Assembly (NCBI GenBank): GCA_038320555.1
Contig: JBBQEJ010000001.1
Coordinates: forward strand, 17,222-81,221
Length of the DNA stretch: 64,000 nucleotides
Direction: 5' to 3'
DNA from: Vicinamibacterales bacterium
GTDB lineage: Bacteria > Acidobacteriota > Vicinamibacteria > Vicinamibacterales > 2-12-FULL-66-21
A program made the position numbers and the translations under genes. The notes under the pieces were generated by a model. That model was not told where the DNA came from. It saw only the letters and a program-made list of their open reading frames with translations, and searched no databases. This document shows positions 3,352-63,814 of this stretch, in pieces. Position 1 is the stretch's first letter; every line of letters begins with the position of its first letter.

Positions 3352-3362
3352 AAGTGGCCCCT

Positions 3363-3418
3363 GTTCGCGGCTCGCGGCTCCTGGTTCGCGGCTCGTGGTC
3401 CCCGCTCGCGGCTCGGCC
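3363..3418. repeat. phased heptamer array (GYTCGYG units) in the dxr-rseP spacer
   Basis: GTTCGCG GCTCGCG GCTCCTG GTTCGCG GCTCGTG read directly from the sequence, inside an operon. Confidence 0.8.
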
Positions 3419-3472
3419 CGTGGTGAAAGCCCGGCACCGCCCCGAATGCTGCCGGATCTTCACCACGGGCCG

Positions 3473-4660
3473 CTAAACCTTTGATTGTACCCCACCGGCC
3501 GCGGTTGACGCGAAATCCCGAGCCCAGTGGTCGATCGCCCGCACGTCGCCAAGCTCCCGCACGGGCTTCGGCCCGTCGTGCTCGTACGCGTCCATCGCCT
3601 GCCCAATCAGGGCGGCAATCGCCGGAAAGGCAATCCGGCGATCGAGAAAGGCGGATACCGCCACCTCGTTGACGGCGTTGAGCACGATCGGCAGCCCCGC
3701 GTCTCCCGCCAGGGCGCGAAACGCAAGCGCCAGACACGGAAACCGGGCAGTGTCGGGCGCCGCGAAATCGAGCCGGCCCGCGCGGACGAGATCGAGCGGC
3801 GGCGTGGGGGCGTTCCAGCGCGCCGGATATGAAAACGCGTACTGGATCGGCAGCCGCATGTCGGTCACGCCAAGCTGCGCGATGATCGATCCGTCCACGA
3901 GCTCCACCATCGAGTGGACGATCGACTGCGGGTGCACGAGGACGACGATGCGCTCCGGACCGACGTCGAACAGCCACCGCGCCTCGATCACCTCCAGCCC
4001 CTTGTTCATCAACGTCGCCGAATCAATTGTGATCTTCGGTCCCATCGTCCAGGTCGGGTGCCGCAGCGCTTCCTCGGGGGTGACCTTCTCGAGGTCCTCT
4101 TTGGACATGTCCCGGAAAGGTCCGCCCGAGGCAGTCAGGATCAGCCGCCGCACGTCGGCGGGCGATCGCCCGTGAAGGCACTGGTGGATGGCGTTGTGCT
4201 CGCTGTCCACCGGAAGGACCGCCACGCCCTTCCTGCGCGCCGCCTCCATGACGATCGCGCCCGCCATCACGAGGATTTCCTTGTTCGCGAGTGCAATCGT
4301 CTTGCCGGCCTCGATCGCCGCCAGCACGGCGTCGAGCGCCGCGGTACCGGACGAAGCGAAGAGCACGACGTCGGCATCCGGATGCGTGGCAACCGCGATC
4401 AGGCCGTCGGGACCGCTCACCGCGCGAGGCGCGGCGCCGAAACCCCGCTGCCGGAGCGCCGTGCAGGCATCCGACAGGGCCTGCGGCGTCGACATCGCAA
4501 TCGTGTCCGGCATGAAGAGGGCTACCTGCTCGATGAAACGCGCGGTGTTCTCCCCCGCCGCCAGGGCCACCACCTGAAGGCGATCGGGGTGCGCCGCCGC
4601 CACCGCCAGCGCGCTCTGTCCGATGGAACCGGTCGATCCGACGACGGCTATGCGGGTCAT
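3473..4660 (-). CDS. dxr: 1-deoxy-D-xylulose 5-phosphate reductoisomerase
   Basis: VVGSTGSIGQSAL NADPH-binding N-terminus and motifs LANKE and PVDSEHNAI. Length is 395 aa. Confidence 0.95.
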   Translation of the reverse strand: MTRIAVVGSTGSIGQSALAVAAAHPDRLQVVALAAGENTARFIEQVALFMPDTIAMSTPQALSDACTALRQRGFGAAPRAVSGPDGLIAVATHPDADVVLFASSGTAALDAVLAAIEAGKTIALANKEILVMAGAIVMEAARRKGVAVLPVDSEHNAIHQCLHGRSPADVRRLILTASGGPFRDMSKEDLEKVTPEEALRHPTWTMGPKITIDSATLMNKGLEVIEARWLFDVGPERIVVLVHPQSIVHSMVELVDGSIIAQLGVTDMRLPIQYAFSYPARWNAPTPPLDLVRAGRLDFAAPDTARFPCLALAFRALAGDAGLPIVLNAVNEVAVSAFLDRRIAFPAIAALIGQAMDAYEHDGPKPVRELGDVRAIDHWARDFASTAAGGVQSKV

Positions 4661-4679
4661 TCAGGGCCTGGGGTTGCGA

Positions 4680-5468: not shown

Positions 5469-5574
5469 GTAATCAGGGCTAGCGGGTGGCGGCTAGCGGC
5501 TTGCGACTGGCGGTTGGCGGCTAGCGGCTGGCAGTTAGCGGCTGGCAGTTGGCGGCTAGCGGCCAGGCGTGGCG
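5469..5574. repeat. intergenic repeat array with three copies of GGCGGCTAGCGGC plus CTGGCAGTT units
   Basis: The 13-mer sits at 5487, 5515 and 5550. Its reverse complement GCCGCTAGCCGCC recurs at 47856-47868 inside the BMC operon. Confidence 0.85.
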
Positions 5575-6467: not shown

Positions 6468-6566
6468 GTATCACGCTCCTTCGCGGGTCGTGGAGTTCAG
6501 CTCGGGAGATGGGCACCTGTACGGTGATCGTATAGCCCCGACAGGACGAACCGCGAATCGCGAACG

Positions 6567-9751: not shown

Positions 9752-9758
9752 GAGCAGT

Positions 9759-9835
9759 GCTCAGGGCTCAGGCAAGGTTCAAGGCCCGAACTCGAGCCCC
9801 GAGCCAGCCTTGAGCCTTTGCTCTGAGCCCTGCTG
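9759..9835. repeat. palindromic element built from duplicated heptamers
   Basis: GCTCAGG x2, CAAGGnn x2, GAGCCnn x2 and CCTTnnn x2, ending in CTGAGCC CTG. The left and right halves are reverse complements, giving a long imperfect hairpin. Confidence 0.8.
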
Positions 9836-9851
9836 ATATACACTTCCCCGC

Positions 9852-10613
9852 GTGAAATTGACCGTGACGGTGATCACGCGGGACGAGTCCACGCACATCG
9901 CCGCCGCCCTCGAGTCCGTCTCCTGGGCCGACGAGATCATCGTCATCGATTCGCGCAGCACCGACGAGACGGTCGCGATCGCCCGCAAGCACGCAACCCG
10001 CGTGGAGGTGCGCGACTGGCCGGGCTACGGCGCGCAGAAGAACTACGCGGCGGAGATCGCGTCGAACGACTGGATTCTGTCGCTCGACGCCGATGAGCGT
10101 GTCAGCCCGGCCCTCGCGAGCGAAATCAAGCAGACCCTCCAGACAGAGCCGGCGGCCCGTGGTTATCGCATCCCGCGGGTGACGTGGTATCTCGGGCGGT
10201 GGATCCGCTCCACGGATTGGTATCCCGATTATCAGCTTCGCTTGTACGATCGACGGGCCGGACGATGGAACGGCCGCCGCGTGCACGAGTCGGTCGATCT
10301 TCAGGACCCACCCGGCTTCCTGCGGCACGAGCTTCAGCATTACGCGTATCGCGACATCGCCCATCACCTCGCGACGATCGATCGCTACACGACGCTCGCG
10401 GCAGAACAGTGGCTGGCGGAGGGACGCCGGACGAACGGCCTCGAGATCCTCATCCACCCGCGGCTGGCCTTTCTTCGCAACTACCTGCTGCGCGGCGGCG
10501 TGAAGGACGGCGCCGCCGGCCTGATCGTCTCGAAGCTGAATGCCTATTACGTCTTTCTGAAATTCGCGAAGCTGTGGGAGCTGCAGCCGCGCGCCCCCGC
10601 TGACAAGCACTGA
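9852..10613 (+). CDS. glycosyltransferase family 2 (LPS-core type)
   Basis: VITRDES..., IIVIDSRSTDET and a LSLDADE DXD-like motif. GTG start. Confidence 0.8.
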   Translation: MKLTVTVITRDESTHIAAALESVSWADEIIVIDSRSTDETVAIARKHATRVEVRDWPGYGAQKNYAAEIASNDWILSLDADERVSPALASEIKQTLQTEPAARGYRIPRVTWYLGRWIRSTDWYPDYQLRLYDRRAGRWNGRRVHESVDLQDPPGFLRHELQHYAYRDIAHHLATIDRYTTLAAEQWLAEGRRTNGLEILIHPRLAFLRNYLLRGGVKDGAAGLIVSKLNAYYVFLKFAKLWELQPRAPADKH

Positions 10614-47331: not shown

Positions 47332-47335
<4 letters not shown>

Positions 47336-48184: not shown

Positions 48185-48185
48185 G

Positions 48186-49686: not shown

Positions 49687-49828
49687 GTCTATGGAGAGAC
49701 GAAGATAACGGTTTTAACAACGAAGCAACGAAGTAATGGAGAAAAAACAAGATTGCTTTGGTTTTCTTCGTTCTTTCTCCGTTTACTTCGTTCCTTCGTT
49801 GTGAACCTCGTTCCCTTCGTCCCCTCCG
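49687..49828. repeat. CTTCGTT-family inverted-repeat element, copy A
   Basis: AACAACGAAGCAACGAAGTAATGGAGAAA ... TTTCTCCGTTTACTTCGTTCCTTCGTTGTGAAC are near-complementary arms of about 30 nt. CTTCGTTGTGAAC sits at 49794-49806. Confidence 0.85.
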
Positions 49829-50077: not shown

Positions 50078-50087
50078 GCGACTCAGG

Positions 50088-50702
50088 CTAGCCCGGGGAT
50101 TTCGGTGTTTCGGCCGCGCCACCCCTGCCGTGGCCCGCACGAAGGCCGTCGAGCCCCTTCTTTGCGACCGCCGCTTCCGGACTGTCCGGCGCCACGTCGA
50201 GGACGCGCTGCCACGCCTGCTCCGCTCCGTCCAGATCCTGCTTCGCGAATGCCCGGACGATGCCGATGTTGAGGAGCGTCTTCGAATGCTTCGGATCGAT
50301 CGAAAGCGATTTGTCGAATTGCGCAAGTGCGCGATCGGGTTGATTCGAATAGTAGTACGCAATGCCGAGATCGGTGCTGGCGTTGACGTTCCTGGGATCG
50401 ACCTTCAGCGCTTCTTCGTACCAGTGCCTCGCGTCGTCGTATCGCTCCGCGTCGAAGTACAGGTTTCCAAGCTGCACCCGAGTCTCCGTGTCGGACGGAT
50501 TGCGCTCGGCGGAGGCCTTCAACGCGGTCGCGCGCGACTGATCGAAGGGTGGTTGCGCCTGTGCCGAGGGGACAGCGGCAGCCGGCGCGGATGCAGCCGG
50601 CGGCGGCGCGACCCCGGTCGCCTGCTGGCTGCCAATGATCCAACCGACCAGCACGCCGAAGAAAATGCCGGCGACGCCGAACACAACAGAGTCTCTTCGC
50701 AT
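50088..50702 (-). CDS. membrane-anchored TPR-repeat protein
   Basis: N-terminal TM segment, a Pro/Ala linker, then TPR units (LGNLYFDAERYDDARHWYEEALKVDP...). Confidence 0.75.
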   Translation of the reverse strand: MRRDSVVFGVAGIFFGVLVGWIIGSQQATGVAPPPAASAPAAAVPSAQAQPPFDQSRATALKASAERNPSDTETRVQLGNLYFDAERYDDARHWYEEALKVDPRNVNASTDLGIAYYYSNQPDRALAQFDKSLSIDPKHSKTLLNIGIVRAFAKQDLDGAEQAWQRVLDVAPDSPEAAVAKKGLDGLRAGHGRGGAAETPKSPG

Positions 50703-50807
50703 TGATAGGGCTTCGAGCTCAGGGCTTGAGGCTAAACTTCGAGTCGTGACTCCGGCCTTGGCCCTAAGACCAACCCTGGACCTGAGCCGTGCAACCTGAG
50801 CCCTGGA
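50703..50807. repeat. GAGCTCAGGGCTTGAGG ... CCTGAGCCCTGG repeat element
   Basis: Shares CAGGGCT/GAGCCCTG units with the 9759-9835 element. Confidence 0.6.
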
Positions 50808-51587
50808 TCATAACAACGTCCGATGGAACCAGTCCACCAGGGTGCGTGCGAGATCCGGATCGTGCCCGAGCATGACCGTGCCATGACCGGCGCGGTTCAT
50901 CACGAGGACTTCGCGGGCGCCGCCGCCGGCTTTCTGAAGATTCCTGGCCGAGCGCAGGGCGTAAGGATCGTCGTCGCTCGCGATGATCAGCGCCGGGTGC
51001 GGGCCGTACTTTTTCATGGCGGCTTCGATGCGCAGGCCGCGGTAGTCGAGCGACGGCGACAGCAGGGCCAGGCTGGCGACGCCGGGATCGCCGGCCGCTT
51101 CGAGCACGGCGAGGTTCGCACCGATCGAAGCGCCCGCAATTCCCACGCGCGATTGCTGCACGTCGCCCCGCGACGCCAGGTATCGCCGGGCGGCGGCGAC
51201 GTCGCGGACGAGCGCGGAGTAATCGGGCGCTTCACCTTCCTGAAGACCACCTGACGATTCGCCGTGCCCGCGCAGATCGATCGCCAGCGCGCCAATGCCC
51301 TCGGCCGCGAGCCGGGTGGCCACGGAGTCCCAGTCGCGCCTGGACTTGTGGAGCATGTGCACGAGGATGACGGCCGGCGCGGATCGAGGCCCTGGTTCGT
51401 ACCACGTGGCAGCCAGCGAAATCCCGTCGTCGGTGCGAATGGTGACGCGCTGTGTCCCGGCGGCGGCCCCGGCAGCGGGAAGAATGGCGAACAACGTCAG
51501 CGCCACGGCGAGCGCACGGAGCGAATGGATCGGGTCGGCGTGCCGCCTGCGCGCGCATCGCGTTGTCGGGCCGGGCCCTACTTCCAT
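50808..51587 (-). CDS. secreted alpha/beta hydrolase
   Basis: VILVHMLHKSRRDW, DLRGHGES and the nucleophile elbow GASIGAN. Confidence 0.75.
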   Translation of the reverse strand: MEVGPGPTTRCARRRHADPIHSLRALAVALTLFAILPAAGAAAGTQRVTIRTDDGISLAATWYEPGPRSAPAVILVHMLHKSRRDWDSVATRLAAEGIGALAIDLRGHGESSGGLQEGEAPDYSALVRDVAAARRYLASRGDVQQSRVGIAGASIGANLAVLEAAGDPGVASLALLSPSLDYRGLRIEAAMKKYGPHPALIIASDDDPYALRSARNLQKAGGGAREVLVMNRAGHGTVMLGHDPDLARTLVDWFHRTLL

Positions 51588-52309
51588 AGCAAGACGACCA
51601 TATCCCGTACCGCGCGATCCATGCCGACCAGCGCGGCGCGCGCCACGATGCTGTGGCCGATGTTGAGCTCGACGATTTCGGTGATCGTGACAATGGGAAT
51701 CACGTTCGTGTAGTTCAGGCCATGACCGGCGAGAACCTCGAGGTCGTGGCGGGCAGCGAGGCGGGCGGCTTCAGCAAGTCGCACGAGCTCCGCATGACGG
51801 GCATCAGCCGGGGCGTCCGCGTATCGGCCTGTGTTGATCTCGACGGCATCGGCGCCCACCGCCTTGGCCTTGCGCACCTGATCCGCATCGGCGTCGAGGA
51901 AAATGCTGACGCGCACGGCAGCCTCGTGCATCTGACGGATGAAGTCCTTGACGGCGGCGGCCTGCAGCACCACGTCGAGCCCCCCTTCGGTCGTCAATTC
52001 CTGGGGGCGCTCCGGCACGAGCGTGACCTGATCCGGACGGATCTGCAGCGCCACGCGCGCCATGTCGGCGGTCACCGCCATCTCGACGTTCAGCTTCGTG
52101 GCGATCGTCTTTCGAAGAAGCTCGAGGTCGCGGTCCTTGATGTGACGGCGATCACTTCTCAGGTGGACGGTGATCCCCTGCGCGCCGGCCATTTCCGCGG
52201 CAATCGCGGCAGCCACCGGCTCGGGCTCGCGCGCCTTACGTGCTTCCCGCAGGGTGGCGATGTGATCGATGTTGACCGCTAAGCGCATCGGCTGACTTCT
52301 CTTCGACAT
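51578..52309 (-). CDS. pdxJ: pyridoxine 5'-phosphate synthase
   Basis: LAVNIDHIATLR, EPDPV-like, HLRSDRRHI and LNIGHSIV motifs. Confidence 0.9.
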   Translation of the reverse strand: MSKRSQPMRLAVNIDHIATLREARKAREPEPVAAAIAAEMAGAQGITVHLRSDRRHIKDRDLELLRKTIATKLNVEMAVTADMARVALQIRPDQVTLVPERPQELTTEGGLDVVLQAAAVKDFIRQMHEAAVRVSIFLDADADQVRKAKAVGADAVEINTGRYADAPADARHAELVRLAEAARLAARHDLEVLAGHGLNYTNVIPIVTITEIVELNIGHSIVARAALVGMDRAVRDMVVLLWK

Positions 52310-52327
52310 TCCCGTAAGGGAACCGCT

Positions 52328-53677
52328 TCATCCCAGGTGTTCGCGTACGGCGCCGGCAATTTCGGCCGCCCACGCCTGAATCTGCTGTTGATCCTTCCCC
52401 TCGATCATCACGCGCAGCAGCGGTTCGGTGCCGGAATAGCGGACGAGCAGGCGGCCCTCGCCTGCGAGGCGGCTTTCCACGCGCGCCATTGCGTCCGCGA
52501 TCGACGGCACGGCCGCCAGCTCCTGCTTTTCGCGGACGCGCACGTTCACGAGCACCTGCGGATACGTCACGAGCTCGGAGGCGAGATCCGCCAGCTCGCG
52601 CCCGCTTTCAACCATCACGCGCAGGACGCTGAGGGCCGTCACGATGCCATCCCCCGTGAACAGGTGCTCGGAGAAGATGATATGCCCCGATTGCTCGCCG
52701 CCGATCGAGAGGTCGCGCTTGATCATCTCCTCCATGACGTACTTGTCGCCGACCGCGCATCGAACGAGATCGATGCGGCTGTCGCGAAGGGCAATCTCGA
52801 GGCCGATGTTGCTCATGACGGTGGCGACGACGGCATTTCCCTTCAGCCGGCCGCCCTGCTTCCAATGGCGGGCGCACATGAGCAGGACCGCGTCGCCGTC
52901 GACCACGCCGCCGTCGGCGTCGACAAAAATCGCCCTGTCGCCGTCGCCATCGAAAGCCACCCCCATGCGGCAGCTCAGAGCACGAACCGCCCTGGCGATC
53001 TGTTCCGGGTGCGTGGACCCGGAGTCGAGGTTGATGTTGCGGCCGTCGGGCGTCGCGCTCAGCACGTGAAGATCGCATCCCAGCTCGCGAAACAGCCGCG
53101 GCGCGACAGTCGTGGTGGCGCCGTTGGCCGTGTCGATCGCGAGCCTGAACGGGCCGAGCCGCCCGGCGTCCGGCAGCGCCAGCCGCGCGTGCGCGATGTA
53201 CGCGTCGATGACGTCGGTCCGATCGACCGGCACGTCGGAGGCGCCGCCCACCGACCAGGTCCGGTCGGCGATGATCGTTTCCACCTCGCGCTCGAGCGTT
53301 TCCGTGAACTTCTCCCCCTTCCCCGAGAAGACCTTGATGCCGTTGTCCTCGTATGGATTGTGCGAGGCCGAGATCACCAGGCCGGCATCGAAGCCCATTG
53401 CGCGCGTCACATAAGCGATTGCCGGCGTCGGGATGACCCCGGCACTCGTGATCTCCGCGCCGGCTGAGTGCACACCGCGCGCGAGCTCGCGCTCGATCCA
53501 TTCGCCCGATTCGCGCGTGTCGCGCCCGACCACAAATCGCAGCGGCCGACCCGGGGTGGTCGACCCGCCCATCGCGCGTACCAGCGCGCCGCCGAGGCGC
53601 GCCACCGTCTCGTGGTCGAGCGGATAGTCTCCCGCCTTTCCGCGGACGCCGTCGGTGCCAAACAGTCGATGGGCCAT
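52328..53677 (-). CDS. glmM: phosphoglucosamine mutase
   Basis: LFGTDGVRG, ISASHNPYEDNGIK and GDGDR motifs. Confidence 0.95.
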   Translation of the reverse strand: MAHRLFGTDGVRGKAGDYPLDHETVARLGGALVRAMGGSTTPGRPLRFVVGRDTRESGEWIERELARGVHSAGAEITSAGVIPTPAIAYVTRAMGFDAGLVISASHNPYEDNGIKVFSGKGEKFTETLEREVETIIADRTWSVGGASDVPVDRTDVIDAYIAHARLALPDAGRLGPFRLAIDTANGATTTVAPRLFRELGCDLHVLSATPDGRNINLDSGSTHPEQIARAVRALSCRMGVAFDGDGDRAIFVDADGGVVDGDAVLLMCARHWKQGGRLKGNAVVATVMSNIGLEIALRDSRIDLVRCAVGDKYVMEEMIKRDLSIGGEQSGHIIFSEHLFTGDGIVTALSVLRVMVESGRELADLASELVTYPQVLVNVRVREKQELAAVPSIADAMARVESRLAGEGRLLVRYSGTEPLLRVMIEGKDQQQIQAWAAEIAGAVREHLG

Positions 53678-53705
53678 ATGAAGGAGCTGGGAACGACGCG
53701 GGAAT

Positions 53706-54617
53706 CTACTTGATCGTCACGTCGACGACGGCGGGATCGATGGCGCTGACGCCGAAGGCTTGCGACGGGTCCACCTGGACGCGAAGATTGTATCGGCCGG
53801 GACCGAGGCCGGCAAGGTCCACGAACGCGTCAATGGCCCCCGCGCGGAGATCGGCTAACGCCTCCCGACGGCCGCGCACGGTCACGCGGGTCAGCGTGGG
53901 GCGGATCTGCGCGCTCAGCCCGGCGCCAAGACCGCGCCAGCGCACCGGCACGCCGGAGAGATCGCGCTCGACGGGCGCGGGAAGAACCTCGACCGTGATC
54001 GTCGCGTTCTGAGCCTGGACCAGCCGCACCGCGGAATCGGTGATCCCGACCGTGACCACGTCGTGCACGCGGGCACGCGTGCCCGTCACCTCAACCGGCT
54101 CCGTCGTCGCGCCCGTCAGTTGCCTCAAGCGGCTCTCGGGGCCCGCGACGTCGACCGTCGGCGGATCGGACGTGACACGGCCGATCACAAAGCCCGGCGC
54201 CGGCTCGCCGTCGAGCGCCGGAACGATCGGGACCGTGCGCCTCCCGGACTTCTCAAGATCGAGCGCGAGCGTGCCGGGCACGACCTGCGCGACGTCGACG
54301 CCGTACGGCGCGCGGACTTCGTCACTGCGCAGATGGAACATGCGCGAACCCGGGCGCGCGCTGCCGAGGTCCAGTACCGCGACGATGTCACGGGGCTCGA
54401 GGCGTCCCAGAAGCGCCGACGACCCGCGCAGCCGCACATCAACCGCGGTCGGCGGATCGCCGACGATCTCGAGCGACGGCGGGATGTTCCGGAACTCGAG
54501 CGGCACGCGCATGCTCCGCTCCACGAGGTGGTCCCCCGCGACGATCAGCCAGACCAGCGTCGCCAGCGCGAACGCCATCAGCTTGAGCCCGATATGACGG
54601 AATGGGTGATAGCGCAT
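53706..54617 (-). CDS. cdaR: YbbR-domain protein (CdaR-like regulator of the diadenylate cyclase)
   Basis: N-terminal anchor plus repeated YbbR-like beta modules. Its position between cdaA and glmM supports the call. Confidence 0.75.
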   Translation of the reverse strand: MRYHPFRHIGLKLMAFALATLVWLIVAGDHLVERSMRVPLEFRNIPPSLEIVGDPPTAVDVRLRGSSALLGRLEPRDIVAVLDLGSARPGSRMFHLRSDEVRAPYGVDVAQVVPGTLALDLEKSGRRTVPIVPALDGEPAPGFVIGRVTSDPPTVDVAGPESRLRQLTGATTEPVEVTGTRARVHDVVTVGITDSAVRLVQAQNATITVEVLPAPVERDLSGVPVRWRGLGAGLSAQIRPTLTRVTVRGRREALADLRAGAIDAFVDLAGLGPGRYNLRVQVDPSQAFGVSAIDPAVVDVTIK

Positions 54618-54618
54618 C

Positions 54619-54653
54619 CAATCCCTATTCCCTAATCGAATCGCGAATCGCTA
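54619..54653. repeat. five phased heptamers in the cdaA-cdaR spacer
   Basis: CAATCCC TATTCCC TAATCGA ATCGCGA ATCGCTA is the reverse-complement flavour of the GATTCG/TTAGGGA units at 47294-47328. Confidence 0.75.
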
Positions 54654-55466
54654 CACATCGTAGGCCCTCGACCCGATGCGCCTGCTCGCCTTGCGCGTTG
54701 TGACGAGGGACCGCAAGCGGCTGCGGAGATCGTCGGGGCTCAAGCCCCGCTCGATGCGGCCGTCGATCGCCAGCGAGATCTGCCCGGTCTCCTCGGACAC
54801 GATGACCGCGACGGCGTCCCCCTCCTCCGTCAGGCCGATGGCGGCGCGATGCCGCGTGCCGAGCTCGCGGCTCACGCGCGGGTTCACGGTCAGCGGAAGG
54901 AAGCAGGCCGCCGCCGCGACCCGGTTCTCCTGCAGGATCACCGCACCGTCGTGCAGCGCCGATCCCCGGTGAAAGATCGTGACGAGCAGATCGTAAGTCA
55001 GCGTCGCATCGAGCGGAATCCCACTCTCGATGTAATTGCGCAGGCCAATCTCCCGCTCGACCGCCACAATCGCTCCCACCTTGTGCGCGGACAGCATCGT
55101 GGCGGCCACGACGATCTCTTCGATGGTTTCGTCGGCCGCTTCCTGCCTGTAGAAATAGCGGAAAAATGGCGCCTGGCCGAAATGCGCGAGGGCGCGACGG
55201 ATGTCCGACTGGAAGATCACGATTGCGGCAAACGCAACGTAGACAAGCATGTTGCGGATCAGCCAGTTCACGGTCTGCAGCGGAGCGAGCCGCGACACGT
55301 AGAACAGCGCGACGATGATGAGGGAACCGACGCCCATCTGGACAGCGCGCGTGCCCCTGATGAGCAGCAGGAACTCATAGATCAGGAAGGCGACGATCGC
55401 GATGTCGAGCAGATCCCACCAGCCCACCGGCGGCCGGCGCAGGACGCTGGCAAGATAGTCCATCAT
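54651..55466 (-). CDS. cdaA: diadenylate cyclase (membrane-bound, CdaA type)
   Basis: Three N-terminal TM segments, with HDGAVIL, LGTRHRAA and VSEETG DAC-domain motifs. Confidence 0.9.
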   Translation of the reverse strand: MMDYLASVLRRPPVGWWDLLDIAIVAFLIYEFLLLIRGTRAVQMGVGSLIIVALFYVSRLAPLQTVNWLIRNMLVYVAFAAIVIFQSDIRRALAHFGQAPFFRYFYRQEAADETIEEIVVAATMLSAHKVGAIVAVEREIGLRNYIESGIPLDATLTYDLLVTIFHRGSALHDGAVILQENRVAAAACFLPLTVNPRVSRELGTRHRAAIGLTEEGDAVAVIVSEETGQISLAIDGRIERGLSPDDLRSRLRSLVTTRKASRRIGSRAYDV

Positions 55467-55801
55467 GCAGGGATAGCTTATCTGATGGCAGCCTCAAAAG
55501 GCGGCGCGACAGAAAGGCCGGCGGCGGCGCTCTGAACGGCAGCTGACGTAGGGAAAACAAGTCCTGCGAGGACGCGTGGCGTGATAGGAAGCCGGAATAG
55601 GCCAACCGGGGGGAAACGGCGGATGCGGTACCACGTGATCCGGCCAGATCAAGAGCGACTGCTGAACCGTCAGGCCGGTGAGCTTGGCTGATTCATGTAC
55701 TCAGCCGCGGTCACGGCGACGGCTTTTGAGACACCGGCATCATAGGGACTGGTGTGCGACGCGCCTGGTGGGGAAACTGTTGCTACAGGCTGTGAACCCC
55801 G

Positions 55802-56674
55802 CTACATAACCCGTGGAGAAAACTCCTGCCTGATGCGATCGGCAACTCTGGCGACATCCACCATCTCAGCTACACGGTGGACCCGGACGATATGTGCGCC
55901 GAGCAGCACGCTGGCGGCTACCGCGGCAGCCGTCCCCCATTCCCGCCCGGCCGGCGGCCGGTCGCCAATCGCCGCACTGAGGAACGACTTGCGCGAGGGC
56001 CCGGCAAGGATCGGCCGATCGAGATGCGCAAGATCGCCGAGGTGTGCCAGTGCGGCGTACGAATGCGCCGCACGCTTCGCGAACCCGAGGCCCGGATCGA
56101 CGATGATCGCTTCCCGAGCAACACCCGCGGCGATCGCACGCGTGAGGGCGGCCCCCAGTTCCTCGGAAATCTCGGCGACAAGGTCGGAGTAGGCGGCTTC
56201 GCGGTACATCTCGCGCGAGCGCCCGCGGTTATGCATCAGCACGACCGCGGCCCCCGACTCCGCGACGACCGAACCCAAACCTGGATCGAACTGCAGGCCG
56301 CTGACGTCGTTGACGATGACGGCGCCGGCGGCCATCGCCTCGCGCGCCACGATCGCCTTGTAGGTATCGACGGACACGGGTACGCCGCTCGTGGCCAGTC
56401 GCTCGATGACCGGCAGGACGCGGCGGAGTTCTTCGTCCGCGGGCAACGGCTCGGCGCCCGGCCGCGTCGATTCTCCCCCGACGTCGAGGATGTCAGCCCC
56501 TTCCTCGACCATCCGCAGGCCATCCTCAATCGCACGGCCGGGATCGAGCCGCACGGCCCCGTCCGAGAAGGAGTCCGGCGTGATGTTGAGAATTCCCATG
56601 ACGAGGGTACGCTCGCCCAGCACAAGTGCCGCGCGATTCCTTAGCGGTACTTCGTAACGGGCTCGCGGGGTCAA
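55802..56674 (-). CDS. folP: dihydropteroate synthase
   Basis: VMGILNITPDSFSDG, DVGGESTRPG and VSVDT motifs. Confidence 0.9.
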   Translation of the reverse strand: MTPRARYEVPLRNRAALVLGERTLVMGILNITPDSFSDGAVRLDPGRAIEDGLRMVEEGADILDVGGESTRPGAEPLPADEELRRVLPVIERLATSGVPVSVDTYKAIVAREAMAAGAVIVNDVSGLQFDPGLGSVVAESGAAVVLMHNRGRSREMYREAAYSDLVAEISEELGAALTRAIAAGVAREAIIVDPGLGFAKRAAHSYAALAHLGDLAHLDRPILAGPSRKSFLSAAIGDRPPAGREWGTAAAVAASVLLGAHIVRVHRVAEMVDVARVADRIRQEFSPRVM

Positions 56675-56747
56675 GGAAAAAAGAGGAAAGGGAAAGGGAA
56701 AAGGGAAAAGGGCCTTCTTGCCTTGTCCCTTTGCCCTTTTGCCTTGC
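56675..56747. repeat. GGAAAG/GGAAAAG array with a complementary CCCTTT/CCTTTTG half (hairpin)
   Basis: GAGGAAAGGGAAAGGGAAAAGGGAAAAGGGCC ... GCCTTGTCCCTTTGCCCTTTTGCC lies between ftsH and folP. Confidence 0.8.
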
Positions 56748-58657
<1,910 letters not shown>

Positions 58658-58661
<4 letters not shown>

Positions 58662-60073
58662 CCTAGGCCTCCTAACCGCCTTGCTTTCAAGAATATCACG
58701 CCTCGCGAGGGCTCCGTGACCCGAAAATCCTCGGCCACCGACTCCCCCACGACCCACACGATCCGGTCCTGGCCATCGACCACCAGGGGAAGCGAATCCC
58801 TGATTTCTCTAGGGATTTTGCGATCCACCAGGAAGTCCTGGAGCTTTTTCCGATGCCCCAGCCCGAGGGGACGGAAGCGATCGCCGCGCCGCCGCAATCG
58901 AATTGCCAGCGGCAACGTCAGCGGATCGGCCGCGACGGCGACCTCTGCCGCCCTTGCGGGTCCCGCCCCTGCAGGTCCGAGCGAATCGACCCGCTCGGCC
59001 GACACCGCCCATCCCTGATTATCGAGCGTCACCTCACCAGGAATAGACAACGGAAACCGAAAAGAGTTCTCGAGGCCGGAATCGCGCCGGCGAGGAGCCG
59101 GTGGTCCGAGCACGATCACCCGTCCGCTGCGCACGGCCCGCTGGCCCGGCAGATCGACCGCCTCCCCATCCGTCGCGTCCGCAAGCTGCAGCAACCTGTG
59201 GACGAGGTCGAATCCGATGAAACGTCCGGCCGCCAGCATCGAGAGAGCGTGCCGCGCGACACGCGTCGCAAGCGCCGGATGGAGCGACCTCAGCGCGGAA
59301 GCGTCAACCTCGATTTTTCCGCCTGTAGTTAAGACGATCGTACGGGAGAAATCGATTGCTTCCTGCTGCAAACGATTTTCGTCGTCGCGTGCCATCGCCG
59401 CTTCCCGGGCCAGCACACGGCTGATTCCAGGCGAAAACTCGCGCTCGAGATACGGGATGAGCTCGTGGCGCACCCGATTCCTCGGGATCGAGAGATCGGC
59501 GTTGCTGCCGTCGGTGCGAAACGTCAGAGCTCGATCCGCCGCATACTGCCGAAGATCCGCGCGTGAAATATCGAGGAGCGGGCGGATCACGCGCCCGGCA
59601 CGGGGCAGAATCCCCGCGAGGCCGCGCGCACCCGAGCCGCGGACCAGACGCAAAAGAAAGGTCTCGGCCTGATCGTCCAGGCTATGGCCGACGGCAATCG
59701 CGTCGGCGCCGACACGATCGGCCGCCTGCTCGAAAAACGCGTAGCGAAGCTCGCGCGCCACGTCCTCAACCGAACGCCGTGTATTGCGCGCGGCGGTGCG
59801 CACGTCCGCACGCCCCACTTCGATCGGCAGGCCGAGCCCCGACGCCATCGCGCGGCAGAACGCTTCATCCTCGTCGGCGGAGGGACCTCGAAGCTGGTGA
59901 TTGAAGTGCGCAAGCCCGGCAACCGTCAGCTCCCCCGCTGTCTGGAGCTCGAACAGCAGATGGGCGAGCGCAACCGAGTCGGGCCCGCCCGACAACGCCA
60001 CGAGCGCGCGCCCGCCGGGCGCCAGAAGCGCATGCCGCCGAATCGTACGGACGACCCGCTGCGACAGATTCAA
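58658..60073 (-). CDS. tilS: tRNA(Ile)-lysidine synthase
   Basis: [14 protein letters not shown]-loop, HFNHQLRG, and a C-terminal TilS substrate-binding-domain pattern. Confidence 0.9.
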
Positions 60074-60104
60074 TTGCGCGTACCTTGTCAGCGAAGAAAA
60101 GAAA

Positions 60105-60181
60105 TGGTGGCGGTGCAGGGACTTGAACCCCGGACAACGCGGATATGAGCCGCGTGCTCTAACCAGCTGAGCTACACCGCC
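60105..60181 (-). tRNA. tRNA with CAU anticodon (elongator Met or Ile2; not initiator-like)
   Basis: Hand-folded 77-nt cloverleaf. Acceptor GGCGGUG/CACCGCC, D arm GCUC/GAGC, anticodon stem CGCGG/CCGCG with loop CUCAUAU, T arm CGGGG-UUCAAGU-CCCUG, and an encoded CCA. Confidence 0.85.
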
Positions 60182-60313
60182 AGAATCCCTGATTGTACAT
60201 CAGGGCAGGTAACGAAGCAGGCTTTGGAGAGAGCGGAGTTCACAACGAAGTACTTCGTTTTGTCGTCGTTCACTTCGTTGCTTCGTTGTGAACCCGGTGC
60301 CCCCTCCCCTCCA
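60182..60313. repeat. CTTCGTT-family inverted-repeat element, copy B
   Basis: Perfect 13-bp inverted pair: GTTCACAACGAAG (60238-60250) and CTTCGTTGTGAAC (60281-60293). The same 13-mer occurs in copy A. Confidence 0.9.
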
Positions 60314-61261
60314 CTACTCCTCCACGAGCGCAGCCGCGAGAAGCGGGATCATGATCTCGTGGTGGCCCACGAGCGAATAGCCCTTGCCCACCCCGGCAAC
60401 CGGCCGCGACACGACGTTGGTCTGCGGCCGGTAAAGCCGGGTGAAGTCCATATTAACGGTCGTGAGCTGGTCGAGCGATGCCCCCTGGTTACGCGCGATG
60501 GCGACCGCCTTGAGGAACACTTCCGGCAGCACCACGGCGGAACCGCAGTTCAAGTACACGCCGCCTTTCAGCCTCGCGACGTTGGAGACGAAATACCGGA
60601 AGTCCCGCAGGCTGCCTTCGCCAAGCGCGGCACCCGACGCTCGTGGATGCATGTGAATGATGTCGGTGCCGATCGCCACGTGCACGGTCACCGGAATCTG
60701 CAGCCGCGTGGCCGCCGCCACGACGCTCAGCGCTTCGTGCGCGGGCTTCATCTCGCGCAGCCGGCGCCCGACCGCCTGGCCCAACCCGAGTCCGTTCTTC
60801 ACACCGTCGTTGATGGCCGCGTTCAGCAGCTCGCCGGTCTCTTCCGCCATGCCGAAGCGTCCGGGCCCGAGCGCTTCGTCCACGTCCTCCGACGTGCCGC
60901 CCGAGAGCGCCAGCTCGAAGTCGTGAATGATCCCGGCGCCGTTTGTCGCCAGCGCGGAGACAAAGCCTCGCTCCATCAGGTCGATCAGGATCGGTCCCAG
61001 CCCGGTCTTGATGACGTGGGCTCCAAAGCCCCAGATGATGCCCCGATCCCCCGTACGCGCCGCCCGGATCGCCGCGACGACGGCCTTGAAATCCGCCGCC
61101 GCGAGAATGGCTGGAAACGACGCAAGGAGCGACGCCATTCCGCCTCCGGCGCGATACGGCTTCGCGAAATCGGCCGCGTTCGCCTTGCTCGTCCGCGACC
61201 CCAGCGGATACGTACGGACGCCGGAGAGATCGTAGTCTTCGTAGGGGAATTTCACGCGCAT
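60314..61261 (-). CDS. deoxyhypusine-synthase-like family protein
   Basis: WGFGAHVIKTGL and ATNGAGIIHDFE patterns recall the DHS-like NAD-binding fold. ATG at 61261 (a TTG alternative lies at 61276). Confidence 0.6.
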   Translation of the reverse strand: MRVKFPYEDYDLSGVRTYPLGSRTSKANAADFAKPYRAGGGMASLLASFPAILAAADFKAVVAAIRAARTGDRGIIWGFGAHVIKTGLGPILIDLMERGFVSALATNGAGIIHDFELALSGGTSEDVDEALGPGRFGMAEETGELLNAAINDGVKNGLGLGQAVGRRLREMKPAHEALSVVAAATRLQIPVTVHVAIGTDIIHMHPRASGAALGEGSLRDFRYFVSNVARLKGGVYLNCGSAVVLPEVFLKAVAIARNQGASLDQLTTVNMDFTRLYRPQTNVVSRPVAGVGKGYSLVGHHEIMIPLLAAALVEE

Positions 61262-61381
61262 GAGGATAGCGCACAACCGGCTTCGTGGGTTCGCGGGTCG
61301 CGGGCCGCGACTGGCGCCTCGCGGCTGGCGACTCGCGGCGCGCGATTGCAGGATTCGAGGATCAGTGATGAGTGATTGGAT

Positions 61382-62473
61382 TCACATGATGAGCATCGCG
61401 TCGCCGTAGCTGTAAAAACGATACCGGTGCTCGATGGCTTCGCGGTAGGCTGCGAGGACCCTCTCTTTCCCGGCGAACGCGGCAACAAGCATCAGCAGCG
61501 ACGACCCCGGAAGATGGAAGTTGGTCAGCAAGGCGTCAACCGCCCGGAACCGATGGCCGGGGTAGATGAAGATCGCGGCTGTCCCGGCCCCCGGCGTCAC
61601 GCGTCCGCCACCCCGCATGGCCGCATCCTCGAGCGCGCGCGTCGTCGTGGTGCCGACGGCGACAATCCGCCGCCCGTCGGTCCGCGCACGCGTGATCGCG
61701 TCGGCTGTCTCGCCAGCAATGTTGTAGTGCTCAGGATCGACGACGTGATCTTCAACGCGTTCGACCCGGACTGGCTTGAAGGTTCCATATCCGACCTGCA
61801 ATGTGATCTCGGTGCGCTCGATGCCTGCCTTCTCGAGCGCAGTCAGAAGCTCGGGCGTGAAATGCAGGCCCGCGGTCGGCGCGGCGACCGAGCCGCGCAC
61901 GCGCGCGAAGACCGTCTGATATCGCTCACGATCCGCCATCGTATCTGGCCGATTGATGTACGGCGGCAGCGGAATATGGCCGAGCGCATCGATGAGCGTG
62001 TCAACGTCGCCGCCCGACTCCGGCCACAACCGAATCGTCCGCCGTCCCTGAAAGCGACGCGCGATCACTTCCGCCATCAGCATACCGGCCCGCCCTTCGA
62101 AGCGGACGAGCGCTCCAGGCTTCAGCTTCTGTCCCGGATGCATGAGCGCTTCGGCGGTGCGCACGTCGCGATCGGGGATCCGGGCTTCGGATTCCGAATC
62201 CAGGGTCATCGAGCTCGTCGGCCCGAGCAGGAGGCACTCCACGGCGCCACCGCTCGGAACGCGATGGCCGAGCAGCCGAGCGGCGAAGACGCGCGTGTTG
62301 TTGACGGCGAGCAGATCCCCGGCGCGAAGGATTGACGGGAGATCCGCCACCGAGCCATGACGGACGGCCCCGGTGGTACGGTCGAGCACGAGCAACCGCG
62401 ACGTGCCGCGCGGCGCCGCATCCTGCGCAATCAGCTCGTCGGGAAGCTCGAAATCGAAGTCGGAAACGTTCAT
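61382..62473 (-). CDS. queA: S-adenosylmethionine:tRNA ribosyltransferase-isomerase
   Basis: FDFELPDELIAQ, PLPPYI, TAGLHFT, VGTTTTRALE and LLTNFHLP motifs. ATG at 62473. Confidence 0.9.
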   Translation of the reverse strand: MNVSDFDFELPDELIAQDAAPRGTSRLLVLDRTTGAVRHGSVADLPSILRAGDLLAVNNTRVFAARLLGHRVPSGGAVECLLLGPTSSMTLDSESEARIPDRDVRTAEALMHPGQKLKPGALVRFEGRAGMLMAEVIARRFQGRRTIRLWPESGGDVDTLIDALGHIPLPPYINRPDTMADRERYQTVFARVRGSVAAPTAGLHFTPELLTALEKAGIERTEITLQVGYGTFKPVRVERVEDHVVDPEHYNIAGETADAITRARTDGRRIVAVGTTTTRALEDAAMRGGGRVTPGAGTAAIFIYPGHRFRAVDALLTNFHLPGSSLLMLVAAFAGKERVLAAYREAIEHRYRFYSYGDAMLIM

Positions 62474-62525
62474 GCCGCGGACCAGCGGCCAATGTACTGC
62501 GGTACAATCGCTGCGTCGAATCTTG

Positions 62526-63773
62526 ATGAGCGAAGACCCACTAGAACAGGAAGACGAACGCAAGCACGTCCTGCCCGCGAAGCGATCAGCCGAAGTCCTC
62601 CTGGTCGCCCCCGAACCCGACGCCGAGCGTCCCGCACCGGCTCCGAGCGGAAGCGCAATCGTCGACGTGAGGAATGTGGCGATGACCGTGCTCGCCGTGA
62701 TAGCGGCCGTGCTGGTCCTGCAGTACGCGCAGTCCGTGCTCGTGCCGATTGTCGTCGGCATTCTCATCAGCTACGGGCTTGCGCCATTCGTCGGAGCTCT
62801 CCAGCGAGTACGCGTGCCGCGCTCAATCGGTGCGGCCGTCGCGGTGACGACGGTGGTCGGCGCAATCGGCATAGGGATGTACACGCTGACCGACCAGGCG
62901 ATGGCCATTGTGTCCGACGTGCCGCAGGCGGCCCAGCGGATCCGCGAGCGCGTGCGTGACCATCGGCTCAGCCCGGGCGGTGCCATGCAGAAGGTGCAGG
63001 AAGCCGCGAAAGAGATCGACAGGGCGGCGCAGGAAGCATCCGCACCCACCAACGCCGAGCGGAGGGCCTCCGAGCAGCTGCAGGCGGCGACCGGTGTCCA
63101 GAAGGTGGAAATCGTGGCTCCGCCCTTCAGGGCTTCGGACTACCTGTGGTCGGGCGGACTGAACCTCGCGGGCTTCGCGGCGCAATTCGTCCTCGTTCTG
63201 TTTCTCGTGTACTTCTTTCTGGTGACGGGGGATCTCTACAAGCGGAAAATCGTCAAGATCGCGGGGCGCACGCTGTCAGAGAAGAAGATCACCGTGCAGA
63301 TCCTCGACGAGATCAACGTGCAGATTGAAAGCTTCATGCGGGTCCAGGTGTTCACGAGCGTTCTCGTCGCCGTCGCGACCGCCCTCGCGCTCTGGTGGTT
63401 CGGCGTGGACCACCCGATCGTCTGGGGCATCCTCGCCGGCGTGTTCAACTCCATTCCGTATCTCGGTCCCCTTCTCGTAACGGGCGGGCTCGGCGTTGTC
63501 TCGTTCATGCAGTTCAACGACCTGCTGCAAACCTCTTACGTCTGCGCGGTCGCGTTCGCCATTACCAGCCTCGAGGGCTTCCTGCTCACCCCCATGCTCA
63601 TGAGCCGCGCCGCGCAGATGAACCCCGTGGCGATCTTCGTCGGCCTGCTGTTCTGGAGCTGGATCTGGGGCCTCTGGGGCACCGTGCTCGCGGTCCCGAT
63701 GCTGATGATGCTGAAGGCCGTCTGTGACCACGTTGAGGACCTGCAGCCGGTCGGCGAATTGCTGGGCGAGTAG
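62526..63773 (+). CDS. AI-2E family transporter (PerM-like)
   Basis: Polytopic protein with GIPYLGP-like NSIPYLGPLL and a C-terminal WGLWGTVLAVPM. ATG at 62526. Confidence 0.8.
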   Translation: MSEDPLEQEDERKHVLPAKRSAEVLLVAPEPDAERPAPAPSGSAIVDVRNVAMTVLAVIAAVLVLQYAQSVLVPIVVGILISYGLAPFVGALQRVRVPRSIGAAVAVTTVVGAIGIGMYTLTDQAMAIVSDVPQAAQRIRERVRDHRLSPGGAMQKVQEAAKEIDRAAQEASAPTNAERRASEQLQAATGVQKVEIVAPPFRASDYLWSGGLNLAGFAAQFVLVLFLVYFFLVTGDLYKRKIVKIAGRTLSEKKITVQILDEINVQIESFMRVQVFTSVLVAVATALALWWFGVDHPIVWGILAGVFNSIPYLGPLLVTGGLGVVSFMQFNDLLQTSYVCAVAFAITSLEGFLLTPMLMSRAAQMNPVAIFVGLLFWSWIWGLWGTVLAVPMLMMLKAVCDHVEDLQPVGELLGE

Positions 63774-63814
63774 AGATCTAAACTTCTAAACTTCTAAAGT
63801 TCTTTAGAACTTTA
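63774..63814. repeat. CTAAACTT x2 / CTAAAGTT units ending in the hairpin TAAAGTTC-TTTA-GAACTTTA
   Basis: AT-rich element between convergent genes. The hairpin at 63795-63814 overlaps the stop codon of the partial downstream CDS. Probable bidirectional terminator. Confidence 0.7.

Follow-up and report, generated by a model that had tools for sequence, protein, structure and literature searches.

Heptanucleotide arrays in the intergenic spacers

We analysed a window of 64,000 nt from a Vicinamibacterales bacterium (GCA_038320555.1, contig JBBQEJ010000001.1), in which about 6.0 to 6.2 kb is intergenic and 58 kb is coding, and in which about half of the spacers between genes are built of tandem 7-nt units. 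The genes were predicted with a codon-usage model, and the key products were checked by Pfam. Matches were obtained for rseP, cdsA, uppS, a phosphodiesterase, pyrF, a PilZ response regulator, a P-type ATPase, a 2-hydroxyacid dehydrogenase, an outer-membrane efflux protein (OEP), two EutN-type genes, BMC-H, a class II aldolase, YbbR/CdaR, CdaA, FolP, FtsH and QueA. Pfam thereby confirmed rseP/dxr/cdsA/uppS, cdaA/YbbR, ftsH/folP and the two EutN genes with BMC. The pairs dxr/rseP, cdsA/uppS and cdaA/cdaR and the BMC genes had been named in an earlier annotation made from the letters of the window alone (the sequence-only reading).

Repeats were detected with Tandem Repeats Finder (TRF) and with a lag scan that required at least 15 matches in 21 comparisons. 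The lag scan found 13 segments at lag 7, together covering 745 nt, in the 6.0 kb of intergenic sequence. By comparison, 200 dinucleotide-preserving shuffles of the spacers gave a mean of 0.14 ± 0.37 segments and a maximum of 2, so that the observed excess was about 90-fold. Lags 2 to 6 and 8 to 13 gave only 0 to 3 segments each (1 at lag 6 and 3 at lag 8), and the seven segments at lag 14 were the same arrays as those at lag 7. Coding DNA showed repeat lags of 3, 6, 9, 12 and 15, with only two lag-7 segments in 58 kb. The best lag was 7 in 15 of the 35 spacers of at least 30 nt, and 14 in three more. The arrays are therefore real, specific to period 7 and intergenic. The sequence-only reading had proposed the same two comparisons, period 7 against other periods and shuffles and intergenic against coding DNA, and within the window both came out in favour of its claim.

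Heptamer arrays were present at about 15 to 18 loci within the 64 kb and made up about 12% of the intergenic bases, the largest TRF copy number being 12.4. The unit types included GTTCGCG, GGCTRGC, CCAGTTG, ACTGRAA, GATTAGG, GGTTTTA, AAAAGGG, GCTCAGG and others, and CGCGAAC-type arrays alone occurred at about eight loci. All arrays listed in the sequence-only reading were recovered, and TRF added those at 5477-5563, 48774-48791, 61291-61309 and, within a gene, 24709-24744. Its statement that the 7-nt phase is kept while the sequence drifts was largely borne out, except that units of 6 or 8 nt occasionally interrupt the register. The repeat at 63777-63803 has a period of 8 and not 7.

Isolated two-copy duplications were over-represented at several unit lengths (7 nt, 7 vs. 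2.5 expected; 8 nt, 5 vs. 0.74; 10 nt, 4 vs. 0.13). Perfect runs of at least three copies numbered 12 at 7 nt, as opposed to 1 to 3 at each of the remaining periods between 4 and 12; one count per period may be an artefact. These small numbers suggest that the preference for 7 nt acts on expansion and not on seeding.

Direct and inverted arrays and their folding

For folding, each spacer was treated as RNA transcribed in the direction of its flanking genes, with 100 dinucleotide shuffles as the control. About 15 arrays were assessed in this way, and five, all inverted pairs, folded better than the shuffles, with z from about -3 to -5.9. The first lies at 9759-9835 (plus strand) downstream of the OEP gene, where (GCTCAGG)2(CAAGGYY)2 is followed by its complement to give a hairpin of about 30 bp; the minimum free energy (MFE) of 9752-9851 was -49.3 vs. 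-32.1 for the shuffles (z = -5.2). At 20616-20733 (minus strand), a long imperfect hairpin starts from the stop codon of the phosphodiesterase gene and reads (CAGTTTY)4 and then (AACTGGC)10 in the mRNA sense (TRF 20620-20692 and 20697-20729; z = -5.9 for 20560-20732). The ACTGAAA/ACTGGAA array in 20560-20732 is an imperfect complement of the CCAGTTG array. The convergent genes for the PilZ response regulator and the P-type ATPase are separated by an inverted pair of GGTTTTA and TAAAACC at 30887-30957 (lag-7 segments 30887-30916 and 30930-30957; TRF 30888-30903), with z of -3.0 and -2.7 on the two strands of 30880-30985. Between the ArsR-like gene and the start of an ATPase gene (33102-33297, minus strand), two inverted arrays, (GTTCGCG)n at 33102-33156 and (CGCGAAT)n at 33259-33297 on the plus strand, flank a nested-hairpin element (TRF 33109-33146 and 33266-33290; z = -4.0 for 33110-33300). 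The last is a terminator-like hairpin after ftsH at 56676-56746 (minus strand), which consists in the mRNA sense of a purine arm (CAAAGGG-type) and a pyrimidine arm (CCCTTTT)n, followed by TCTTTTTT (TRF 56679-56712; z = -3.0 for 56624-56747).

The direct arrays behaved differently. The largest, with about 13 units of GGCTRGC on the plus strand, fills the uppS-cdsA spacer at 5476-5566 (minus strand; TRF 5477-5563, 12.4 copies; Pfam Prenyltransf and CTP_transf_1) and is unstructured (z = -1.0 for 5469-5574). At 47210-47331 (minus strand), the spacer between a 68-aa gene and the 2-hydroxyacid dehydrogenase gene is filled in the mRNA sense by reverse-complement units of the GGGAYTN type and then (CGAACCN)11 (TRF 47217-47292, 10.9 copies, 92% matches, and 47313-47330), also unstructured (z = -0.3 for 47211-47334). 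Two EutN paralogues of the microcompartment operon are separated by (GCGGCTG)4(GRAAACY)5, read in the mRNA sense, at 47818-47886 (minus strand; TRF 47818-47856 and 47853-47881; z = 0.05 for 47814-47887). The aldolase and BMC-H genes of this operon are separated by a CAGCTAC/CAGCCGC array at 48764-48806 (minus strand; TRF 48774-48791 and a lag-7 segment; z = 0.2 for 48755-48831), with a conserved AGGAGG ribosome-binding site after the array and orthologous arrays of 37 to 137 nt. These four regions thus folded no better than shuffles (z from -1.0 to +0.2), indicating that these direct arrays do not form hairpins. A direct, drifting array of GGYTCGC and GRCTGGC units (plus strand) lies between queA and the next gene at 61288-61345 (minus strand; TRF 61278-61345 with periods 7, 8 and 14, and 61291-61309; a lag-7 segment), and the region 61277-61381, with z = -1.7, likewise counts as unfolded.

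In the dxr-rseP spacer, about seven CGCGARC units (mRNA sense) form a direct array at 3359-3418 (minus strand; TRF 3365-3415, period 7, 7.4 copies; a lag-7 segment) that ends 8 nt before the start codon of rseP, whose product matches Pfam Peptidase_M50. Directly after the dxr stop codon, and adjoining this array, the MFE structure of 3352-3472 contains a strong hairpin at 3419-3472 (minus strand) with a perfect 15-bp outer stem, which is not built of heptamers and has no T-run. The folding signal of the spacer (z = -3.4) stems from this separate hairpin.

Smaller or weaker arrays were found elsewhere. A short CGAACCG array of 2.7 units (TRF) lies at 6547-6565 (minus strand), at the upstream end of the spacer before uppS. 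The 33-nt cdaA-cdaR spacer at 54618-54650 (minus strand) consists of two CGATTCG and two ATTAGGG-like units (lag-7 identity 0.65; TRF 54637-54651; Pfam DAC and YbbR). A (CGCGAAC)2.7 array with 100% matches in TRF occupies 26558-26576 in a convergent spacer, beside a CTTCCGCC/GGCGGAAG hairpin. The spacer at 50700-50805 (minus strand) is more weakly phased, with GGGCTTG/GAGCTCA ... CCTGAGC units and a best lag of 7 at 0.40; an inverted arrangement is possible there and is not significant (z = -0.5). One array is intragenic: about 5.5 GATCCGG-like units at 24709-24747 (plus strand; TRF 24709-24744) lie in frame within pyrF (24286-25077) and encode DPESGIRERGSGA. The Pfam OMPdecase match of this protein covers 249 residues as opposed to 220 profile positions, so that the array looks like an insertion. 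The pyrF case suggests that heptamer arrays can invade coding DNA when their total length preserves the frame.

The sequence-only reading had described the spacers in general as arrays folding into hairpins. The claim holds for several of them: its three A A B B ... B' B' A' A' examples, 9752-9851, 30880-30985 and 56624-56747, all folded better than shuffles, and 20560-20732 and 33110-33300 can be added. It was over-generalised with respect to the direct-only arrays, which are unfolded. Its suggestion that the arrays are RNA structural elements or terminators is likewise supported for the significantly folding subset only, including the ftsH hairpin with its T-run. An Rfam scan of the whole window at gathering thresholds returned tRNA-Met alone, and a permissive Rfam scan of 56560-56780 gave only sub-threshold matches resembling microRNA precursors, as a generic hairpin would.

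The two kinds of array also differed in placement. The direct arrays of the window separate genes with a functional link (uppS/cdsA, EutN/EutN, aldolase/BMC and cdaA/cdaR); the inverted ones are mostly placed between genes that are convergent or unrelated. On these small numbers, the placement fits a selection that would remove hairpins from operon interiors.

The inverted arrays at 33102-33297 also affect a gene call. The ArsR-like open reading frame (ORF) at 33106-33726 (minus strand) has no stop codon after its conserved domain and reads through both arrays and the hairpin element between them. The read-through adds about 70 residues (...EPRFAIGDSRISS...REPRIANREPR) and the extended ORF finally overlaps the P-type ATPase start codon in an ATGA. 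On that strand, all frames of CGCGAAC-type arrays are free of stop codons, so that such arrays can silently lengthen the ORFs upstream of them.

Arrays in related genomes and their position relative to genes

The best matches of the dxr protein were Acidobacteriota metagenome-assembled genomes (MAGs) with 81%, 72% and 69% identity, followed by gp6 and Vicinamibacterales MAGs at about 65%. We examined 80 loci of 21 kb, in which genes were called with a window-trained model that was refined for each locus. The 25 closest loci belong to those Acidobacteriota MAGs whose dxr is most similar to that of the window; several carry a gp6 or Vicinamibacterales label, and the group is termed Vicinamibacteria-like here. 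Among the 80 loci, most of these 25 showed the lag-7 signal. Pyrinomonadaceae/Blastocatellia had it more weakly, and in Terriglobia, Firmicutes and the remaining loci it was practically missing, with L059 and L064 as two outliers. Intergenic lag-7 segments numbered 48 in 59 kb in the Vicinamibacteria-like loci, 7 in 23 kb in Blastocatellia and 23 in 125 kb in all others, compared with 13 in 6.2 kb in the window. The period was again specific: the intergenic DNA of the 25 loci gave 48 segments at lag 7 and 37 at lag 14, as opposed to 0 to 17 for each lag that is not a multiple of 7 (8 at lag 6 and 12 at lag 8). The trait is patchy, and no arrays were found in L009, L012 and L013.

The combination of an array with an inverted array recurred in L003, L006, L008, L019, L020, L021, L023 and L075. 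Hairpins of this type were also seen outside the high-GC group, at L059 3463-8480, L025 6168-6245, L028 7790-7959 and L040 2681-3044. L059 is an unclassified MAG of 52% GC in which (CAGACCA)n ... (TGGTCTG)n occurs three times in 5 kb. High GC or membership of one class is therefore no prerequisite for this architecture.

Units from different genomes were no more similar to one another than composition-matched shuffles, 103 of 300 shuffles reaching the nearest-neighbour value of the array consensus units. A lineage-wide recognition motif, which we had considered as a candidate, was dropped because the distance between genomes equals that of shuffles.

In the window and the 25 related loci together, lag-7 segments covered 13.8% of the bases of convergent spacers and 13.1% of those of co-directional spacers, but only 1.7% of those of divergent spacers. 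Arrays were found in 7 of 28 convergent, 32 of 159 co-directional and 3 of 50 divergent spacers (Fisher p = 0.012, divergent vs. the rest). In co-directional spacers, the array started a median of 1 nt after the upstream stop codon and ended 7 nt before the downstream start codon, so that the array in effect constitutes the spacer. The slightly closer position to the stop than to the start was not significant (p = 0.10), and no G/C strand bias relative to transcription was observed (skew positive in 17 and negative in 22).

Turnover at orthologous junctions

The microcompartment locus at 47535-49686 (minus strand), with its counterparts in L081 to L097, contains a class II aldolase gene, BMC-H, three EutN-type pentamer genes, the 68-aa gene (no Pfam match) and the 2-hydroxyacid dehydrogenase gene. 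In the metagenome collection, 172 blocks encode a 97-aa BMC-H identical to that of the window, indicating that the lineage is widespread in the sampled soils.

For the comparison of close strains, we used 15 metagenome contigs encoding the 92-aa EutN protein (47535-47813) identically. Four of them (L081, L085, L087 and L088) are 100% identical to one another over 460 nt of adjacent coding DNA, and their EutN-EutN spacers are 116, 109, 123 and 123 nt long, respectively, differing solely by whole GRCTRGC units. The window is 96.5% identical to these strains over the same 460 nt and has a EutN-EutN spacer of 74 nt; the alleles in relatives are 8, 37, 47, 74, 109, 116 and 123 nt. The exact 7-nt steps in length beside identical coding DNA show that the arrays are hypermutable simple-sequence repeats and support the origin by slippage proposed in the sequence-only reading. 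The spacer between the 68-aa gene and the dehydrogenase gene was variable too: most close strains have 39 nt there, L086 has 109 nt and the window 121 nt, and in all of them it finishes in units of the CGCGAAC family before the start codon.

Unit sequence turns over as well as unit number in the comparison of orthologous spacers, a check that the sequence-only reading had proposed. L090 encodes an identical 178-aa phosphoribosyltransferase downstream, but its phosphodiesterase spacer has a direct (CTTCCAG)7 array, as opposed to the (CAGTTTY)4 and inverted (AACTGGC)10 arm of the window. The flanking non-repeat part of this spacer, including a GC hairpin, is conserved between the two. Here the units have evolved in concert, and a whole arm has been gained or lost. 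Exact-protein look-ups for strain variants of other hairpin-type spacers gave no match for the genes at 30157-30879, 9852-10613 and 55802-56623.

In the relatives that encode the identical 97-aa BMC-H (gene 88 to 97% identical to that of the window at the nucleotide level), the same three operon junctions carry the same unit families, with arrays of 8 to 137 nt, and the two junctions of the microcompartment operon at which genes overlap or abut never bear an array. The closest of these relatives, L094 (96.9%), has a EutN-EutN spacer of only 8 nt, TCTGAAGC. In the uppS-cdsA-dxr-rseP operon, the genes of many relatives overlap or lie 0 to 10 nt apart, and others have arrays of unrelated units at some junction.

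The ftsH-folP junction

The terminator-like hairpin after ftsH could be followed in 39 metagenome relatives with FolP proteins 61 to 89% identical to that of the window. Many of them have a purine-rich heptamer arm right after the ftsH stop codon, paired with a pyrimidine-rich arm and a T-rich tail. The units vary from relative to relative (AAAAGGG/CCCTTTT, AAAAGTT/AACTTTT, AGAAGGT/ACCTTCT and CTCAGAA/TTCTGAG), and heptamer hairpins with different units were found in L098, L100, L104, L106, L111, L118, L130, L131 and L135. In others its place is taken by a classical GC hairpin with a T-run, and some relatives lack both types. A stem-loop with a T-run downstream of the gene is thus present both at 56676-56746 and in many orthologous spacers. 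The structure is kept while the sequence turns over, which matches the expectation for a terminator or 3'-end hairpin made from repeats.

A second hairpin, at 56624-56670 (minus strand), lies between the variable heptamer hairpin and the folP start codon. This conserved leader hairpin, CTACGAAGTRCCGC ... GCGGCRCTT, was found in many relatives just upstream of folP and has no Rfam match. Seven pairs are predicted, one of them with a compensatory CG-to-GC change in 3 of 10 sequences. It could be a regulatory element for folP.

Comparison with known repeats

The short tandemly repeated repetitive (STRR) sequences of heterocystous cyanobacteria (Calothrix, Anabaena/Nostoc) fall into a small number of fixed unit families, CCCCAGT, TTGGTCA and CAACAGT among them. 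The window arrays belong to a different phylum, show many unit types within 64 kb and drift within a single array. Their units do not match these STRR families; the nearest is a loose likeness between AACTGGC/AACTGGG and ACTGGGG, the complement of CCCCAGT. STRR sequences are usually 7-bp repeats capable of forming hairpins, are found among other places between hupS and hupL, and may act in transcript stability or translational coupling (PMC2670836). The window arrays resemble them in being tandem heptamers at many intergenic loci, also between co-operonic genes, with the capacity to form hairpins (PMC2670836). We regard the arrays as hypermutable heptanucleotide simple-sequence repeats that are functionally like the cyanobacterial STRR, and as neither artefacts nor conserved motifs.

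Xanthomonas genomes are also high in GC. The window shares with the heptamers of Xanthomonas and Nostoc the bias towards non-coding DNA, the inverted pairs, the depletion between divergent genes (here 1.7% vs. 13 to 14%) and the variation among close relatives. Rehm et al. (2015) described GGGAATC in Xanthomonas and GGGGA(C/T)T in Nostoc as intergenic, sometimes inverted and close to ORF ends (PMC4692102). They occur less often than expected between divergent ORFs, their length and sequence vary extensively among close relatives, and no function was found for them (PMC4692102). However, they form a single G-tract family that is capable of forming G-quadruplexes and prefers four units (PMC4692102), whereas most window arrays cannot form a G-quadruplex. 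Four G3 tracts occur only at 47299-47328 and 56690-56712, and the large arrays (GTTCGCG, GGCTAGC and CCAGTTG) have none.

A 2007 survey by Mrazek, Guo and Shah, as summarised in later papers (PMC4692102, PMC4679880), found heptamers to be the most abundant class of long simple-sequence repeats, those with units of 5 to 11 nt, and offered an explanation based on the polymerase footprint. The window arrays agree with this class in the excess of period 7, the non-coding location and the polymorphism in unit number, and slippage is its proposed origin according to the same summaries. Every tested feature of the heptanucleotide class was found in the window arrays. The class is a general statistical one, and the summaries of the survey do not mention Vicinamibacteria or subdivision-6 Acidobacteriota.

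Other heptamers show partial likeness. TAACTGA repeats occur in marine Beggiatoaceae, some cyanobacteria and Bacteroidetes, and 'a range of repeating heptamers' was noted in Microcystis (MacGregor 2015, PMC4679880). They are intergenic direct heptamers, often just upstream of start codons, and AAACTGA/AAACTGG in the window (20697-20729) is one base off. However, that system has one heptamer in 2 to 6 copies; the window has many different units in as many as 13 copies, and its inverted pairs are frequent. In Chloroflexus, (GATAGRA)n has been reported (PMC6749651). Repetitive extragenic palindromic (REP) sequences are palindromes of 20 to 40 nt with conserved sequence, GTAG/CGTC heads and associated RAYT transposases (PMC3733652). 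Like REP sequences and bacterial interspersed mosaic elements (BIMEs), the window has hairpin elements in co-directional and convergent spacers for which termination and mRNA stabilisation are proposed. Unlike them, the window arrays lack a consensus and vary in 7-nt steps, and the direct arrays are not palindromic. The hairpin at 56676-56746, with TCTTTTTT directly after ftsH, resembles an intrinsic terminator; the stems of the arrays are, however, much longer, imperfect and built of repeats, and most other array hairpins have no clear T-run.

The sequence-only reading knew of no description of such a high-GC version that keeps its phase while the sequence drifts. The comparison does not support novelty of the type, because intergenic, intra-operonic, hairpin-forming, divergent-depleted and variable heptamers are already known (STRR, PMC2670836; Xanthomonas/Nostoc, PMC4692102). 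Every property that we measured has a counterpart in published heptamer reports. What is new is the lineage, and we found no description of heptamer arrays from Acidobacteriota in the searchable literature. The arrays differ in degree from the known cases, by the many unit families per genome, the very high density and the frequent inverted pairs.

Origin and possible roles of the arrays

The arrays probably arise by slippage-driven expansion and contraction of 7-nt units in spacers that are free of promoters. We infer a sequence of events in which a 7-nt tandem duplication would first arise in the few non-coding bases between two genes, and strand slippage in replication or repair would then gain or lose whole units far faster than point mutation changes them. 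Re-duplication of point-mutated units would give the A A B B runs and the drift with the phase kept. Arrays would build up where extra length is tolerated, after stop codons in co-directional and convergent spacers, and would be eliminated from divergent spacers, which carry promoters, and, where they break the frame, from coding DNA. Some arrays would gain an inverted copy, most simply via intramolecular template switching, to give long imperfect hairpins. With lower confidence than for slippage itself, we propose that transcription units keep the inverted pairs at their ends as terminator-like hairpins, which may serve as intrinsic terminators or 3'-end hairpins, and that the direct arrays inside operons would be unstructured linkers.

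Several observations weigh against this explanation. Pure neutral slippage leaves the strong preference of 7 over 6 or 8 unexplained. It does not explain either why the units of the window resemble one another more closely than composition-matched shuffles do; only 1 in 500 shuffles reached the observed value. The persistence of arrays at the same three microcompartment junctions down to 88% identity of the BMC gene could mean maintenance by selection. As for the terminator part, a clear T-run follows only one array hairpin of the window (56676-56746). The sense strand folded better than the antisense strand in 15 of 26 cases (11 opposite), which is not significant (Wilcoxon p = 0.07), and the array hairpins were absent from the output of a generic promoter and terminator scan of 44001-64000, which consisted mostly of intragenic matches and so was uninformative.

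An alternative is that all arrays, the direct ones included, are selected cis-acting RNA elements. They would stabilise the mRNA, provide sites for processing by RNase III or other enzymes, or form adjustable intercistronic spacers in which the number of units determines how strongly neighbouring genes are expressed relative to each other, with slippage only tuning them. We consider this unlikely, although it is the strongest of the alternatives. It is favoured by the sharing of junctions and unit family among relatives with BMC genes 88 to 97% identical, by the near absence of arrays from divergent spacers, by the ftsH 3'-end hairpin that is kept despite sequence turnover, by the non-random units within the genome and by the weak trend towards better folding of the sense strand. 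However, L094, the closest BMC relative at 96.9%, has its EutN-EutN spacer cut to 8 nt, and many relatives have overlapping genes at junctions that bear arrays here. In addition, the direct arrays have neither structure nor strand bias, the difference between sense and antisense folding is not significant, and searches for a function of the Xanthomonas/Nostoc heptamers found none (PMC4692102).

A bolder view, which we hold to be distinctly less probable, is that some property of replication or repair with an intrinsic 7-nt step makes heptamers the main intergenic material, which is then co-opted. Inverted pairs might serve as self-renewing, register-tolerant terminators, and direct operon arrays as fast-mutating 'rheostats', in which a change of unit number would reset the relative expression of adjacent genes, for example those for microcompartment shell proteins. 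If true, the principle of contingency loci would operate in housekeeping operons instead of surface antigens.

The strict 7-nt periodicity, and the periods of 14 and 21 that TRF also reported for several arrays, would suit a protein with a 7-nt footprint, either a cold-shock-domain protein on single-stranded RNA or a DNA-binding protein placed every 7 bp (21 bp being two helical turns). CspB indeed binds heptamer repeats with one protein per heptamer (PMC4679880). The units of the window are, however, very diverse and differ by locus (GTTCGCG, GGCTAGC, CCAGTTG, GGTTTTA, AAAAGGG and GATTAGG), those of different genomes are no closer than shuffles, the orientation to transcription is random without G/C strand bias, and no candidate protein was identified. 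We regard a binding platform as highly improbable, and the repeat-recognising protein suggested in the sequence-only reading finds no support. Even less probable is an origin as copies or remnants of a small mobile element inserting downstream of genes, in the manner of REP/BIME or miniature inverted-repeat transposable elements (MITEs). The same unit types do occur at several loci of the window, and a dispersed nested-hairpin element lies within arrays at 33190-33245, in L081/L094 and in L005. But the arrays have no conserved ends or consensus, their lengths move in 7-nt steps, orthologous sites expand and contract gradually instead of showing presence or absence of a fixed element, and the embedded element, which a single array of the window contains, is an entity of its own. 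Chance matches or assembly artefacts can be practically dismissed in view of the 90-fold excess, the occurrence of the same kind of array in independent JGI, ENA and GenBank assemblies, including contigs of 0.4 to 2.7 Mb, and array lengths of 30 to 120 nt, which are shorter than typical reads.

Slippage in promoter-free spacers thus remains the explanation we prefer. The arrays add a distant, abundant and little-studied soil lineage, Acidobacteriota subdivision 6, to the bacteria known to bear heptamers. Soil metagenomes already contain many near-identical strains that differ in unit number, and the relatives range from array-rich to array-free, which makes the lineage a good natural test bed. 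It could be asked which replication and repair genes correlate with heptamer proliferation, how unit number affects expression, and why the unit has 7 bases. In practical terms, the arrays are hotspots for mis-assembly and for miscalled gene ends, as in the ArsR-like read-through ORF.

Other repeat elements in the window

The nested-hairpin element between the inverted arrays is about 50 nt long and has the form CCCTTCGAC-N3-GCTCAGGG-N-CG-N-CCCGAGCAACGTCGAGGG. Besides 33190-33245 (minus strand) in the window, it was found at L081 375-425, L094 1368-1418 and L005 7380-7430, embedded in heptamer arrays at non-orthologous loci of different genomes. It may represent a small element of the REP or MITE kind that is separate from the arrays.

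A second repeat family occurs at 26520-26550, 40112-40200 and 42910-42955 and consists of the hairpin CTTCCGCC-TGAA-GGCGGAAG followed by CCACAAAG. At 40112-40185, 3.9 tandem copies of a related 19-nt unit, TAGCTTGTCCTTCCGCCTG, precede a closing hairpin, and 42921-42953 contains 2.2 copies of a 15-nt unit. Inverted repeats of the 8-nt sequences CAACGAAG and CTTCGTTG were found at 49718-49830 and 60230-60300, the latter directly downstream of tRNA-Met (60105-60181, minus strand), and both loci carry the exact 13-mer TTCGTTGTGAACC (at 49795 and 60282). The period-8 repeat mentioned above belongs to an AT-rich convergent spacer (63774-63811, 26% GC), in which 3.4 copies of TCTAAACT end in the small palindrome AGTTCTTTAGAACT.

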